This document shows, one piece after another, positions 55,292-63,605 of a stretch of DNA of 64,000 nucleotides. The notes beneath the pieces were generated by a model, which was not told where the DNA came from, did no database searches, and saw only the letters and a program-made list of their open reading frames with translations. The stretch covers positions 52,514,001 to 52,578,000 of the forward strand of contig OZ024742.1 in assembly GCA_964016885.1 (NCBI GenBank). Reading direction: 5' to 3'. Source of the stretch: Eledone cirrhosa (Eukaryota). The position numbers and the translations under genes are program-made. Every line of letters starts with the position of its first letter. Within the stretch, counting starts at the first letter, position 1.

Positions 55292-55386
<95 letters not shown>

Positions 55387-55587
55387 TTAGTTATACTATT
55401 TATGGTTATGTAAACACAAAACCTTAAGCAGTTGTAAGTATTTTACACACACCCTAAATAGTGGTAGGCAGTAATGTATTACTACCTTATTACCAGTAAG
55501 TTAAGTAGCTCAATGTAAAAACATCAGATGATTTACAGAGCAGTTATATGAAATATAAGAATCAAAGAACTGTTCAAAACATTATTG

Positions 55588-55634
55588 TGCTTACAGCTGT
55601 TTCCTCCAAACCGAGGTTTGGATTCTTCGGAGCA
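55588..55634 (-). ncRNA. Variant hammerhead ribozyme motif of the PLE
   Basis: TGCT-CCGAAGA-A-TCCAAAC(CTCG)GTTTGGA-G-GAAA-CAGCTG-TA-AGCA. Confidence 0.75.
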
Positions 55635-57077
55635 ATTTATTAATGCATGGACAGTTATATGACCTCCTTTTCAGCCGAGAGACATACCAATACATATTCA
55701 AGCATTGATACATATTCAAATATTGTGGGTCAACATTCATTACAGAATTTAGAGTGGCAGTACACACTTCGAGATTACATTTATATTAATAGGTACAATC
55801 AAAAATCAAAGATATAGGTTAAAGTACAACATGAAGATAAGTGGTTATATAGTGCAAATGTTATATGTGTGGCACGCATGTGCGTCTTGTTTATATAGTG
55901 TGGCAGAGAGATATGTGTGGTAGAGGCACTTAGGTAGGTAAATAAGAGTGTTAGGTTGGTAGATCTGGTGGCAAAGTCTTTATATGATTGATATAGTCTG
56001 TGTGTGGAGAAATATTATAAGCGTTAAAGATAGTGCAAGCATTAAAAGTGTTATAAGTATTGGAGATGCACAGCGCAGGGATGTCAAGTAATTCATGTAC
56101 TTCGGCATTTTCATGGTCAAGGGAGTGTATATTTCGATTATATGCCTTTCACATAATCCACGACAATCCAGTTAGAGATCGTAGTCTGGTGTTCTTTAGT
56201 TCGATACAGGAGGTTGTTACGTTTCGAGAGACGCCAATGAATACCGGAAGTGTGTGTGTGGCTAAGGGGAGTTAATGCATGCGGGGAGGTAACTCTGGGG
56301 TTTCTATATCTAGCCATTAAAATGTGTCCCAATATAGACCCTAAATTCTATGGTGAGGTGCACCTTCCAAGAGAGACTTTTAAAGCATAAAGTGTACTAA
56401 CTATAGAGTAGTTTAACTAAATTATGCTGAAGGTGATCATATTATTATTAAGGTGGATTAACCCATCTTAAGGTGCTACAAATGGAAATTATAGATGATG
56501 AGCGAGGATTCTAAATTAATGATCTCTGTGGTTGTAGTCTGCTCATATGACCAGGCGCGGTGATTGCAGGATTGCTTCAGGACCCAATGATCTCTGGTAA
56601 GATCTGGGTCATCGCTTGCTACATTGGATGTCGAAAGATAATCGTCCCCAGGCAGGCCAAAGGTCAATCCGCAGTCCTCGCGACCCCTCTCTGACCGTCA
56701 GATCATCCATATACGTACAACCCGCACGGCAGTTGCATTGCATTCACTCACCGCGCTCAGCAGCCCGGTCCTACTGGTCAACAGTGCTACTCGATTAAAT
56801 CATTTTACATCTGTCTAAGGAAGGTGTTTCCTCTGCCCAACACCATCCAACCGATCAATTCATGCTCAAATTACCCTTAGAGCGGTGTAGTGCCGTCCAG
56901 GTGGGTGGATGTTGTCACACCTGCCGTAGAGGTATAAACGGGTATTTTCCCTGCGAAGGGTTCCAGAGGGATGTCGTTGTTTGTGTTATAATGGATCAGC
57001 TAGTGTTGGGTATGTAGTATAGGGTGTGTCTCTGGTGTTTGATGCTAGATGTGGTGTTAGGTTCCGGTCCGACATTG

Positions 57078-59537
57078 CTATATATAGGGCTTAAAGTTTT
57101 GGAAGGAATGTCTGAGGCGGTGCTGGCAAGTTGCAAACACCTCAGATTTTTTGTTAAGTAGGTTACGGTTGGAGAAGATAATATTGTGTGTCTCTAGTAT
57201 ACAGAGGTTACAGAATTTATTAGGTGGTTTGTACGAGGTCGCGCTGCCTATCACTTCCCATTTGAGTGTGTATGGTTTATTTTTAGATTTTAGATAGTGT
57301 ATGTAGCTAGAAAGTGAGGTGGAGTTGGCTAGGCTGTGCTTTTTGAACGAGTGGATGTGCGAGTTATATCTAATTTTGAAGCAGTTAGAAGTGGAGCCTA
57401 CATAGGTTTCTGAAGAGTTATTAGTCGTGACTGTGCATGAGTATATGACATCCTTGGTTAGGCATTTTTTATCTAAAGGGCAGGTTCTATTAGCTCTACA
57501 GTTACAATTATTCTGTGCGTTAGTCCGCTGGTTATAATGCAATGCGGAAGTCTGTGTGGTGGATATAGGATTTTGGGTGTTCAGGTTGACAACCCTGGTG
57601 TTATTACTTATACTAGTGTTATTTCTATTGTTACTGCCGTTGCTATTGTTGCTTGCTACAGTGGTATTTAGAGGGTTTGCATCCCGTTGTGATTTTGTTT
57701 GTTGGAAGTAAGAACTAATTTTACTATTATTGCTGCTAGCTATGTGGTATGCTAAGTTAGGCGTCGTAGAGTATGAGATTTTAATGGTGTTTTTGTTTAA
57801 GAGGTTGTGGTACTTGTGTCCTAGAGGGAAGTTTTTATCTAGTAGTGAGAAGAAAGCCCTAGGTATGTTGGTGGAGACATTTAGGTTGAAAGGAGGGTTG
57901 AAAAATGTATTATTTCTTCTTCTATTTTTACTTTTAGTGTTTGGTGTGTTGCTTCCTCCTAAGGCCTCACAGTAGTTTCCATGGTAATGGTTACTTCCGG
58001 TGGCACCCTCCGCTTTGGTGTACTTGTGGTTGCTATTCCTATTATTAGATTTCCTCATGGACATGTTGTGCGAGATGATGTTGTAGCTATGTGTTTTCTT
58101 AGGTAGGAACTCAATTTCTATATTATGGCCGGAGCTAGCTAATGCTTGATTGTAATATTGTGAGTTTTTGCTAAATATGTTTGCGTCATAGGACAGACTA
58201 GAGATTCTATTGGACACCCCCTTAGAGATAGAGTTTAATATTGATCTAGGGTGATTAGACTTGGTATCTACGTAAATAAGTTTCTCATTAGGCTTATGGA
58301 AAGGTGTATATATTTTTGAGTCTAGGTATAGTGTGGCGTCTAGGAAGTTAACATTTTTAGTGTTTTTGTCCATGGTGATACTAAGGTTAAAGTTTTTGAA
58401 TGTCTTATGCAGTTGTTTTCTAGTTCTTTCTATATTAAATTTTTTATATTCTATGAGTAGAAGTGCATCATCGCGGTACAAACCACCGTTGAGGTAAGGG
58501 AGGTCTTTATGGATTTCGTTGAGGAGGTATAGGCCGACCAAATCAGTGACCTGCGCCGAGTCACTAGATCCCATGGTTATGTCGAAGTTGTTGTGCGTAT
58601 CCTTGCGTGTCCATAGTTGGTCCTCGAAGGTGATTATGGTTTTACGGGCCGCAAGGATGACATCAACCTGGGCTCTAGTCAGGTCGCTATTGGTCATGGC
58701 CATGATAAGTGCCTTATTTAATAGGATAGGGGAAATAGAGGTGTAGTATGAATTGATATCAAATTGAATAAATTTTTTGTTCTTATTATTCTTGATATCC
58801 TTAAACCATTCAATTACTTCACCCGTATTTCCCCATTGTTTAAGGTGTATCTTGTGTTTAATTTGTGGGATGATTTTATCCAAAATCTTCTTGCTGATAA
58901 TACCAATGTCGGACTTGGAAGGGCAGATAAGTTTTATCGTGGGGTTGCTGATGAAGTTCTCCTTATGGTCCTTCAGAGAGAATCTAGGGGGGTTCGGAGT
59001 GAAAGGTTGTGTATGCCTCTGTAGTCCTAGTTTAGACACTATATTATAACCCTCTACATTAATATCTTCTAAGTTTTTCAAGGTGGTTTTTTTGTAGCTT
59101 TTATGTAGTTCATTATATATAAACTTTCTATAAGTAATATAATCTAGGCTGTATATGTTATTAGTTTTATCTGCGTGTACAATAATTTTATTACTAGTTT
59201 TGAATCCACTAATAGAAGTGTTAAGTTTGTTTAAGAAGGTGTTGCTTCTAATATGGTGCTTATTGTATTTAATGTTCTTAACTAGTTTAACTAGGTCATT
59301 TTCAAAGGAGTTAAGTAGAGTGTTATGAGGGGGGCTTTTAAAGGTTTTAAAGCCGAAGGAGTCAAAATTGTTAGTATTATTCAAGTTGTTAGATTTGTTT
59401 CTATCATAATGGAATGTCCTCCATCTCACTCTATTGATAAATGAATTTACACTGTTGATCAGCAATTTCTCATATGTATTCCTGGATGGTATTGGTATGT
59501 TCTTGGTTGACATGGGGAGTTGGTCTTTGATTAGCAT
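57078..59537 (-). CDS. PLE RT-GIY-YIG protein, 819 aa, intact
   Basis: KNIPIP, ADKTNN, QFDINSYY, FDITMGS, GLYRDD, VNFLD, FNPPF, CNCRANRTC (CxCx5C), VIY..YVG..R...H, KW, CNLC..E. Confidence 0.93.
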   Translation of the reverse strand: MLIKDQLPMSTKNIPIPSRNTYEKLLINSVNSFINRVRWRTFHYDRNKSNNLNNTNNFDSFGFKTFKSPPHNTLLNSFENDLVKLVKNIKYNKHHIRSNTFLNKLNTSISGFKTSNKIIVHADKTNNIYSLDYITYRKFIYNELHKSYKKTTLKNLEDINVEGYNIVSKLGLQRHTQPFTPNPPRFSLKDHKENFISNPTIKLICPSKSDIGIISKKILDKIIPQIKHKIHLKQWGNTGEVIEWFKDIKNNKNKKFIQFDINSYYTSISPILLNKALIMAMTNSDLTRAQVDVILAARKTIITFEDQLWTRKDTHNNFDITMGSSDSAQVTDLVGLYLLNEIHKDLPYLNGGLYRDDALLLIEYKKFNIERTRKQLHKTFKNFNLSITMDKNTKNVNFLDATLYLDSKIYTPFHKPNEKLIYVDTKSNHPRSILNSISKGVSNRISSLSYDANIFSKNSQYYNQALASSGHNIEIEFLPKKTHSYNIISHNMSMRKSNNRNSNHKYTKAEGATGSNHYHGNYCEALGGSNTPNTKSKNRRRNNTFFNPPFNLNVSTNIPRAFFSLLDKNFPLGHKYHNLLNKNTIKISYSTTPNLAYHIASSNNSKISSYFQQTKSQRDANPLNTTVASNNSNGSNNRNNTSISNNTRVVNLNTQNPISTTQTSALHYNQRTNAQNNCNCRANRTCPLDKKCLTKDVIYSCTVTTNNSSETYVGSTSNCFKIRYNSHIHSFKKHSLANSTSLSSYIHYLKSKNKPYTLKWEVIGSATSYKPPNKFCNLCILETHNIIFSNRNLLNKKSEVFATCQHRLRHSFQNFKPYI

Positions 59538-59790
59538 ATTGGCAATATTATATGTCAGCTCAACGATATGGAGCAGTTAATAGTATTAGTTATACTATTT
59601 ATGGTTATGTAAACACAAAACCTTAAGCAGTTGTAAGTATTTTACACACACCCTAAATAGTGGTAGGCAGTAATGTATTACTACCTTATTACCAGTAAGT
59701 TAAGTAGCTCAATGTAAAAACATCAGATGATTTACAGAGCAGTTATATGAAATATAAGAATCAAAGAACTGTTCAAAACATTATTGTGCT

Positions 59791-61983
59791 TACCACATAG
59801 CTAGCAGCAATAATAGTAAAATTAGTTCTTACTTCCAACAAACAAAATCACAACGGGATGCAAACCCTCTAAATACCACTGTAGCAAGCAACAATAGCAA
59901 CGGCAGTAACAATAGAAATAACACTAGTATAAGTAATAACACCAGGGTTGTCAACCTGAACACCCAAAATCCTATATCCACCACACAGACTTCCGCATTG
60001 CATTATAACCAGCGGACTAACGCACAGAATAATTGTAACTGTAGAGCTAATAGAACCTGCCCTTTAGATAAAAAATGCCTAACCAAGGATGTCATATACT
60101 CATGCACAGTCACGACTAATAACTCTTCAGAAACCTATGTAGGCTCCACTTCTAACTGCTTCAAAATTAGATATAACTCGCACATCCACTCGTTCAAAAA
60201 GCACAGCCTAGCCAACTCCACCTCACTTTCTAGCTACATACACTATCTAAAATCTAAAAATAAACCATACACACTCAAATGGGAAGTGATAGGCAGCGCG
60301 ACCTCGTACAAACCACCTAATAAATTCTGTAACCTCTGTATACTAGAGACACACAATATTATCTTCTCCAACCGTAACCTACTTAACAAAAAATCTGAGG
60401 TGTTTGCAACTTGCCAGCACCGCCTCAGACATTCCTTCCAAAACTTTAAGCCCTATATATAGCAATGTCGGACCGGAACCTAACACCACATCTAGCATCA
60501 AACACCAGAGACACACCCTATACTACATACCCAACACTAGCTGATCCATTATAACACAAACAACGACATCCCTCTGGAACCCTTCGCAGGGAAAATACCC
60601 GTTTATACCTCTACGGCAGGTGTGACAACATCCACCCACCTGGACGGCACTACACCGCTCTAAGGGTAATTTGAGCATGAATTGATCGGTTGGATGGTGT
60701 TGGGCAGAGGAAACACCTTCCTTAGACAGATGTAAAATGATTTAATCGAGTAGCACTGTTGACCAGTAGGACCGGGCTGCTGAGCGCGGTGAGTGAATGC
60801 AATGCAACTGCCGTGCGGGTTGTACGTATATGGATGATCTGACGGTCAGAGAGGGGTCGCGAGGACTGCGGATTGACCTTTGGCCTGCCTGGGGACGATT
60901 ATCTTTCGACATCCAATGTAGCAAGCGATGACCCAGATCTTACCAGAGATCATTGGGTCCTGAAGCAATCCTGCAATCACCGCGCCTGGTCATATGAGCA
61001 GACTACAACCACAGAGATCATTAATTTAGAATCCTCGCTCATCATCTATAATTTCCATTTGTAGCACCTTAAGATGGGTTAATCCACCTTAATAATAATA
61101 TGATCACCTTCAGCATAATTTAGTTAAACTACTCTATAGTTAGTACACTTTATGCTTTAAAAGTCTCTCTTGGAAGGTGCACCTCACCATAGAATTTAGG
61201 GTCTATATTGGGACACATTTTAATGGCTAGATATAGAAACCCCAGAGTTACCTCCCCGCATGCATTAACTCTCCTTAGCCACACACACACTTCCGGTATT
61301 CAATGGCGTCTCTCGAAACGTAACAACCTCCTGTATCGAACTAAAGAACACCAGACTACGATCTCTAACTGGATTGTCGTGGATTATGTGAAAGGCATAT
61401 AATCGAAATATACACTCCCTTGACCATGAAAATGCCGAAGTACATGAATTACTTGACATCCCTGCGCTGTGCATCTCCAATACTTATAACACTTTTAATG
61501 CTTGCACTATCTTTAACGCTTATAATATTTCTCCACACACAGACTATATCAATCATATAAAGACTTTGCCACCAGATCTACCAACCTAACACTCTTATTT
61601 ACCTACCTAAGTGCCTCTACCACACATATCTCTCTGCCACACTATATAAACAAGACGCACATGCGTGCCACACATATAACATTTGCACTATATAACCACT
61701 TATCTTCATGTTGTACTTTAACCTATATCTTTGATTTTTGATTGTACCTATTAATATAAATGTAATCTCGAAGTGTGTACTGCCACTCTAAATTCTGTAA
61801 TGAATGTTGACCCACAATGTTTGAATATGTATCAATGTTTGAATATGTATTGGTATGTCTCTCGGCTGAAAAGGAGGTCATATAACTGTCCATGCATTAA
61901 TAAATTGCTCCGAAGAATCCAAACCTCGGTTTGGAGGAAACAGCTGTAAGCACAATAATGTTTTGAACAGTTCTTTGATTCTT

Positions 61984-61995
<12 letters not shown>
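59791..61995 (+). mobile_element. Inverted 5'-truncated duplicate of the PLE (GIY-YIG part, 3' UTR, hammerhead)
   Basis: Reverse complement of ~55545-57749 with only a few differences. Ends in (TA)n. Confidence 0.95.
61906..61952 (+). ncRNA. Variant hammerhead ribozyme motif (second copy)
   Basis: Identical to 55588-55634. Confidence 0.75.
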
Positions 61996-62228: not shown

Positions 62229-62804
62229 TATATGAAAGATGTAAAATAAGAAAATTATAGTAATTAACTTACTTACTTAAGTTTCACTCCAACTAATTAG
62301 TTTCTGGAAGGGGATATACATAGTTTTCAAAGCTATGGAGAATCCTTTCTTCATCGGGGAGTCAATTCTCGGCTAAGATTCCTGGCGATAGGCGGACACA
62401 GGGAGCTCAAACAAAAATAATTCAGTGAATGGAAAAAAAGCAAGCGCGGACTAAATTTCAAGGCAATGAAAATTTCACTGCCTTCCTGGTCAGTGGCAAA
62501 TTCAAAAGAATCAATCACGTGACATCTAGGTTAATCAGTGAGGAGTGGGGTGTTAAAAAGACAGTAGCCAAAATGTTACTATGAACCATAGTAACTTTTT
62601 TCCATTCACTGAATAATTTTTGTTTGCGCTCCCTGTGTCCGCCTATCGCCAGGAATCTTAGCCGAGAATTGACTCCCTGATGAAGAAAGGATTCTCCATA
62701 GTTTTGAACACTATGTATATCCCCTTTCAGAAACTAATTAGTTGGAGTGAAACTTAAGTAAGTAAGTTAATTACTATAATTTTCTTATTTTACATCTTTC
62801 ATAT
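62229..62804. mobile_element. Foldback element with ~210-bp inverted arms (62229-62440, 62595-62804), each carrying a hammerhead motif
   Basis: Direct comparison. + strand motif at 62672-62748: ACTCC-CTGATGA..GAAA-CTAATTAG-TT-GGAGT. Confidence 0.85.
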
Positions 62805-63082
62805 AATTGTTCTACATTTTTGTATTGAACCACAAAGTTACTAAGACAAAACCTATATCTTGCTAGCGTAAATATACATCTGTATAAATATGTTGGTAGA
62901 TATACTAATTCTTTATATATATATATATATATATGTATATATTTATTAAAATAACAGATTAAAGTTTAAGCAAAGAATCGCTGCTATTTTAATAAATATT
63001 TGCTCTACGGTTCTTATATATTTGATATATATTTATACTTATCGAGCCCTCTTAGGATTTTAGTCTTCAAATTTATTATTAT

Positions 63083-63151
<69 letters not shown>

Positions 63152-63605
63152 AAAAATGCGAAATTGTTGTAGATGTTAAAGAATCTTTTATTGAGAAGGC
63201 TGTGACACTTATTTCCCGTTTACTTATTATACACATACATGTATATATATATGTGTGTGTGAGTGTGTGTGTGCATGCGTGTATGAGTATGTGTATCTCT
63301 ATATAATAAGTAAACAGTAAGAAGGTACCAATTTAGCATCATATACATGTTTTATTCATTCATGCCGAGCGTTTCGCAATCGATCAGCTCAGGATACGAT
63401 TGCTCATCAGCTGGCCCGTCTCTGAATTTGAAAGCTCATCAAACAAGTGTATTTCAAACGTCAAACAACTTTATATATATATCAGAATGGAGGCGGTAAA
63501 AACCAGTTAGACCATTACTCACCAGAGTACTCGATACTCGCATTTTTTCATATATAGTAATAATAATAAATGTTAAGACTAAAATCCGAAGAGGGCTCGA
63601 TCAGG

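Follow-up and report, generated by a model that had tools for sequence, protein, structure and literature searches.

The motif at 61906-61952 of the window (the whole 64-kb stretch of DNA analysed here) is probably a conserved type I hammerhead belonging to a Hydra-clade Penelope-like element (PLE), in which C stands in for U at core position 4 across a whole clade of families of this genome, and which would behave as a slow, conditional self-cutter formed by two copies of the motif. The chemistry that this involves is already known, as separate publications already describe the U4-to-C change (U4C) and mismatched bases at the foot of helix II; the fixation of U4C in a retroelement lineage appears, provisionally, to be unreported.

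Read from the letters and from covariation, the motif lies on the plus strand and presents three helices around a junction with the end of helix I open, as corresponds to the type I architecture: a 4-bp helix I (TGCT at 61906-61909 with AGCA at 61949-61952), the core CCGAAGA (C3-C4-G5-A6-A7-G8-A9, 61910-61916), a mismatched A10.1 (61917) and G11.1 (61936) at the base of helix II, a 7-bp helix II (61918-61924 with 61929-61935, closed by a CTCG loop), GAA (G12-A13-A14, 61937-61939), a helix III formed by the 8-nt palindrome ACAGCTGT (61940-61947), and A17 (61948), which completes a GUA triplet and places the predicted cleavage between 61948 and 61949. The remainder of the hammerhead core is present (C3, G5, A6, G8, A9, G12, A13, A14, A15.1-U16.1 and H17), and both the location in a pseudo-LTR and the short, palindromic helix III are those of the dimeric hammerheads of PLEs. 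What departs from the canonical form is the U4 of the CUGA turn, replaced by C4, and the purine-pyrimidine pair G10.1-C11.1, replaced by A.G at 61917/61936; since natural exceptions with U4C that cleave have been published, we file the motif as a variant and not as a canonical member. In four sequencing runs, one of which is possibly the source of the window itself, no other letter exceeds 5% at 61911, and helix III variants appear at 61943-61944, a result that is given no weight here. The fold of the monomer is by itself unremarkable (z of -1.44, not significant), and the Rfam hammerhead models at gathering score gave no match in the 64-kb window, where they also missed the motifs with a canonical core.

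An identical second hammerhead is found at 55588-55634 on the minus strand, within the 3′ pseudo-LTR that the same insertion carries in its full-length arm. The first-pass annotation had described the core, the 7-bp helix II, the palindrome and the GUA triplet correctly, and also the identity of the two copies; however, these are the arms of one inverted repeat of 2,208 nt that is 100% identical, so that their identity does not constitute independent evidence. The full unit of the element measures 4,199 nt (55381-59579, minus strand), comprises the ORF and a 3′ region of about 1.7 kb, and ends at (TA)n. Its open frame of 832 codons (57078-59576, minus strand, with the first Met at codon 14) would encode a reverse transcriptase (RT) with a C-terminal endonuclease of GIY-YIG type. 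Upstream there is a pseudo-LTR (59580-59793, minus strand), a 214-nt duplicate of 55381-55594 that begins at the predicted cleavage site, and the inverted, 5′-truncated arm that carries the reported hammerhead (59788-61995, plus strand) stops at (TA)n, 47 nt beyond that site.

The translation, read by eye, contains the motifs RWR, DKT, CxCX5C, CxxC and CxH and no CCHH, and the marks described for the Hydra clade are an RWK-like motif, DKT, CxCX5C, CxxC and CxH in the absence of CCHH (Craig et al., 2021, PMC8557442, section 11); insertion at (TA)n, the pseudo-LTR and the inverted truncated copy are likewise structural marks of this clade. Judged by these motifs and by the structure of the insertion, the host is a young Hydra-clade Penelope-like retrotransposon. 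A Pfam search of the translation gave no significant match, and 816 ORF homologues were found among 7,999 scored candidates, the best 120 of the 816 being 31-41% identical. A metagenome scan with the single ORF protein returned no relative, and with alignment A1 it returned 78 loci, about 38 of which contain a CUGA hammerhead. Two of these loci show single CCGA hammerhead-like motifs adjoining Hydra elements (L119:2650-2700, and L080 on the minus strand near 2464), which may or may not belong to the adjoining elements; the hammerhead proper to L119 is CUGA.

That C4 is the consensus of the family, and not an accident of one copy, follows from its frequency in the genome (3.0 Gb searched): a 32-nt core containing CCGAAGA is matched exactly 3,880 times, its CTGAAGA form 29 times, and the same core reversed as a control not at all. 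A looser pattern, which does not admit G at 11.1, brings in 11,358 further motifs, with C4 in 4,054 and U4 in 7,304, and a pattern built on the helix II of the clade finds 7,323 motifs with CCG, 346 with CTG and 175 with CCA; all these counts are pattern matches and not insertions, and the two arms of a single insertion are counted twice. The U4-to-C change had been proposed as the mark of a variant class that canonical descriptors would overlook, and on both points the proposal holds: C4 is common to a whole clade of families, according to the tree and the counts on its helix II, and a CUGANGA pattern would miss CCGAAGA.

Trees were built both from the endonuclease and from RT and endonuclease together; they comprise 31 rows, none of them a named reference element. 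Of 60 regions fetched upstream of such pattern matches, few retained coding sequence. The window element groups with L204 (C.A at 10.1/11.1), L205 (C.U), L261 (U-A) and L213 in one C4 clade (ultrafast bootstrap 98 and 99), within which endonuclease identity to the window ORF is 64-87%; L213 itself has U4 but comes from a family that is mostly C4, L119 has its own CUGA hammerhead and was left out of the C4 count, and for L261, L213, L225 and L239 the coding piece is tied to its hammerhead by orientation and distance only. The sister group of the clade consists of three U4 families from the same genome (48-50% endonuclease identity to the window ORF). As the C4 elements form one clade with U4 families as sister group, a single origin of U4C is likely, and the most likely course, as read from these sequences, is that C4 arose once, then persisted and is tolerated. 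Two further features were observed among the loci. Helix III is of 8 nt and self-complementary in the C4 families, and of 7 nt with a central mismatch in the dimer in the U4 sisters (L174-L263). Moreover, a second young Hydra family, with a 4,011-nt unit, many open frames and an RT identity of 45-48%, shows by eye a canonical core and a helix III made up of AT only (L144-L173).

The other part of the proposal, that a purine-purine pair at the base of helix II would define the subclass, does not survive the comparison. Within the 64 distinct rows (55 with C4, the sampling being uneven by design) positions 10.1/11.1 of the C4 rows read U-A in 26, A.G in 11, C.A in 8, C.U in 5, A.A in 4 and U.U in 1, such that C4 and a purine-purine pair coincide in 15 of 55, even with a sampling enriched for the A.G family, while A.A is also carried by a multi-copy family with the canonical U4. 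The position is thus simply relaxed in the C4 clade, and A.G is one of its states. Other hammerheads show a certain freedom here: the Hydra relatives from the metagenome have G-C, G.U and U.U; of the 26 Hydra rows in File S2 of Craig et al. (PMC8557442), all CUGA, 14 have U.U and 1 has U.C; and U10.1-U11.1 occurs in natural hammerheads (Perreault, 2011, PMC3088659). A.G at this position was not met in those parts of the literature that were examined.

The rest of the motif behaves in the manner expected of a conserved dimeric hammerhead, in that helix II and the palindromic helix III covary and the cleavage triplet switches. At positions that the search pattern left free, U16.1 is found in 62 and G16.2 in 58 of the 64 rows; position 17 is other than G in 63 (A in 28, C in 33) and G in only 1, so the triplet alternates between GUA and GUC among the relatives; helix I is conserved and loop 2 is free to vary. 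The helix III palindrome differs from one subfamily to another (ACAGCUGU, ACAAUUGU, ACAGUUGU and ACGAUUGU) around an unchanged core. In 25 rows picked by hand from the 64 to span the families, 95.5% of cells are paired and 12 have double changes, levels reached by none of 500 shuffles in either measure, and alignments slid as controls give 26-42% paired; given that the rows are related and that the search pattern holds the core and three pairs of helix II constant, these figures are inflated and should not be read as probabilities. When two copies are folded together, the double hammerhead is the predicted minimum-energy structure (-35.1 kcal/mol, against -11.7 per monomer), a result obtained in only 20 of the 64 rows, and in some variants the pairing of helix III is weak (-3.4 to -6.4 kcal/mol).

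Two further places had been cited in support of the variant, and neither serves for this purpose. A short insertion of another family occupies 62229-62438 and 62596-62805 as an inverted repeat, and has a hammerhead with a long helix II, the palindrome ACTAATTAGT and a GUU triplet; its two motifs (62.3/62.7 kb) do read CCGATGA and CTGATGA, each with A.A, as claimed, but their relatives at four loci (L053, L215, L251 and L257, 73-78% identical) read CTGA with C.A wherever the core could be read, so the C at 62.3 kb looks specific to that copy. The CCGAAGA at about 63584-63586, put forward as a recurrence, is followed by no GAAA and is not a hammerhead core; in all 7 of the other full copies at the fetched loci the repeat at about 63584 has CCAAAGA (an eighth is incomplete there), and the other copy of the window has CCTAAGA. 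On the minus strand, at about 63360-63422, the window also contains a motif with a canonical CUGAUGA core, G10.1-C11.1 and a long helix II, whose helices III and I look decayed.

The ends of the insertions offer a view of what the motif might do in the life of the element. All 35 loci picked by the core pattern run on beyond the cut site, which indicates that the inserted DNA was copied from RNA intact there, whether uncut or re-ligated; cutting would then not be an obligatory step in forming the ends. Matches that start exactly at the cut site number 13, one of them an internal deletion; a control position located 8 nt downstream gives 11. Out of 132 matches, 90 upstream pseudo-LTRs were examined, and none of the 90 begins within 5 nt of the cut site (32 exceed the 900 nt examined and the other 58 give 5′ ends). 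The start of the window pseudo-LTR at the cut site was entertained as a trace of cleavage in vivo and, in view of these junction counts in other copies, was set aside as coincidence.

Some other regularities were seen at these ends. Seventeen of the 58 uncensored 5′ ends (L031-L060, L277-L336) lie 30-100 nt upstream of the cut site, approximately window 61849-61919, a cluster with a binomial value of about 1e-6 against a uniform distribution (n=57), for an interval picked post hoc; it may reflect the start of transcription or a stalling of the RT just past the hammerhead. The 3′ ends of 78 genomic copies concentrate at two sites counted from the cut site, around +47 (18 at +46/+47) and at +211 (54, including copies that run into a tandem), whose counterparts in the window are 61995 and 55381; the distance between the two is a 164-nt "tail", far in excess of the 30-40 bp described for PLEs. 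Finally, many families, C4 and U4 alike, have a hexamer AATAAA, ATTAAA or AGTAAA a few bases past the cut site (L174-L263), possibly a poly(A) signal.

The sequence of events that we consider most plausible would begin with one transcript spanning two pseudo-LTRs, or with two transcripts, in which the self-complementary 8-nt helix III would pair between copies, forming a double hammerhead able to cut after GUA. The core would be weak by prediction, with no conserved loop contact, an altered base in the U-turn and no G10.1-C11.1. When the imino proton of U4 is lost, the U-turn becomes weaker. A contact of U4 with a phosphate has been described, which is consistent with this weakening (Perreault, 2011, PMC3088659). 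The same source reports that U4C in viroids considerably lowers activity in vitro and yet allows infectivity, and that among mismatches at 10.1/11.1 it is U.U that is tolerated best, from which it follows that the combination of U4C with A.G may be nearly dead. As with the Anolis element, cutting could depend on a protein, here that of the element itself, and new insertions are templated by RNA without a break at the cut site, either uncut or re-ligated.

Against this reading, it could be argued that the hammerhead is positively maintained in its C4 state, tuned down or made dependent on a protein in such a way that full-length RNA survives for translation and reverse transcription, an idea that we regard as unlikely. 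In its favor, C4-G5 is a CpG, one transition away from the canonical form, and no U4 revertant of family size was found among the first 100 of the 346 U4 matches, while changes did occur at positions 7, 10.1, 11.1 and 17, in loop 2 and in helix III; the 35 loci that extend beyond the cut site also agree with it. However, the U4 copies are about twofold more numerous than the 175 copies with G5A, a presumably lethal change at the same CpG, so U4 is not visibly purged; the free positions changed, by informal estimate, approximately one to three times on a small tree, so zero reversions are compatible with neutrality; and the U4 sister families were amplified in the same genome too (7,304 U4 matches). 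A related reading, to which we give a similarly low credence, holds that the CCGA turn, the relaxed 10.1/11.1 and the self-complementary 8-nt helix III would together have been fixed as an evolved throttle, with cutting only as a dimer or in the presence of the element's protein; if true, surveys based on CUGA would be missing whole clades of PLE hammerheads, with some 8,000 copies in this genome alone.

It is less likely still that the motif no longer cuts, and is kept as a structural, dimerization or protein-binding element or through its overlap with a 3′-end signal. The insertion junctions without a footprint and the AATAAA-like hexamer downstream of the cut site in many families would fit such a role, as would the finding that catalytic mutants of the Anolis element left insertion in vitro unaffected (PMC11167929); but a position 17 that toggles between A and C, with G in 1 of 64 rows, together with the retention of U16.1, obeys a rule of cleavage and not one of binding, and thousands of copies match patterns that hold every other base of the core. 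As for the supposition that C4 is only a mutation accumulated by a dead copy whose hammerhead was once canonical, it would account for the side examples at 62.3 kb and 63584, but as an explanation of the reported motif it is refuted by the copy counts (3,880 against 29), and the open frame of 832 codons and the 100% identical arms also speak against it, leaving it a negligible probability.

The descriptors of PLE hammerheads treat U4 as invariant and, since the C4 clade has been amplified to thousands of copies, searches based on U4 under-count, which bears on the claims that some PLE groups lack hammerheads. The C4 families and their U4 sisters, in several states at 10.1/11.1, also constitute a natural series on how much weakness a PLE hammerhead can tolerate, and on whether cutting is of consequence for retrotransposition. 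In the hammerhead and Penelope literature that we covered, of which Lunse 2017, the largest survey of hammerhead variants in PLEs, is not a part, no report of U4C fixed in a retroelement lineage was found; the hammerheads with CCGA or U4C in it are viroid cases, with no PLE case. The supplementary file of PMC4209133 that was searched (file 2) contains no CCGA core.

Among known systems, the closest are the Hydra-clade hammerheads (Craig et al., 2021, PMC8557442, File S2), which are also of type I, located in the 3′ pseudo-LTR, with a short helix I, a palindromic helix III (for example acag..ctgt) and mismatched bases where helix II closes, in elements that share the (TA)n targets and the inverted 5′-truncated copy. 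In contrast, the 26 Hydra rows of that file are without C4 and without a purine-purine mismatch, and the window element, of 4.2 kb, exceeds the usual size of under 3 kb. The motif likewise resembles the minimal metazoan PLE hammerheads (Cervera and De la Pena, 2014, PMC4209133) in its long helix II and short helix I, in the lack of a tertiary contact, in the dimer formed through a palindromic helix III and in its low expected activity, given that those hammerheads act as dimers with low activity in vitro; their consensus, however, reads CUGANGAH, has the pair G10.1-C11.1 and bulges on one side, and the core variants given there concern U3-A8.

The core change itself is that of the U4C hammerheads of viroids (one variant from peach latent mosaic viroid, and CtaHVd-LR1), where self-cleavage is reportedly retained, one source describing it as unaffected (PMC9608096); this statement and that of a considerable loss in vitro (PMC3088659) both cite Ambros and Flores (1998). 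The viroid cases are minor quasispecies variants in hammerheads with loop contacts (PMC3088659, PMC9608096), whereas here thousands of copies have U4C as a fixed feature, in a minimal type I motif that is also without G10.1-C11.1. Lastly, PAc, a hammerhead from the Poseidon element of Anolis (Frangieh et al., 2024, PMC11167929), is similar in leaving no footprint of cleavage in genome or RNA and in insertion from unprocessed RNA, although it belongs to the Poseidon clade and overlaps the start of the ORF, while the motif described here lies 214 nt upstream of the frame. PAc cleaves only in the presence of protein and is dispensable for insertion in vitro, and by analogy with this system a dependence on protein may be contemplated for the window element.
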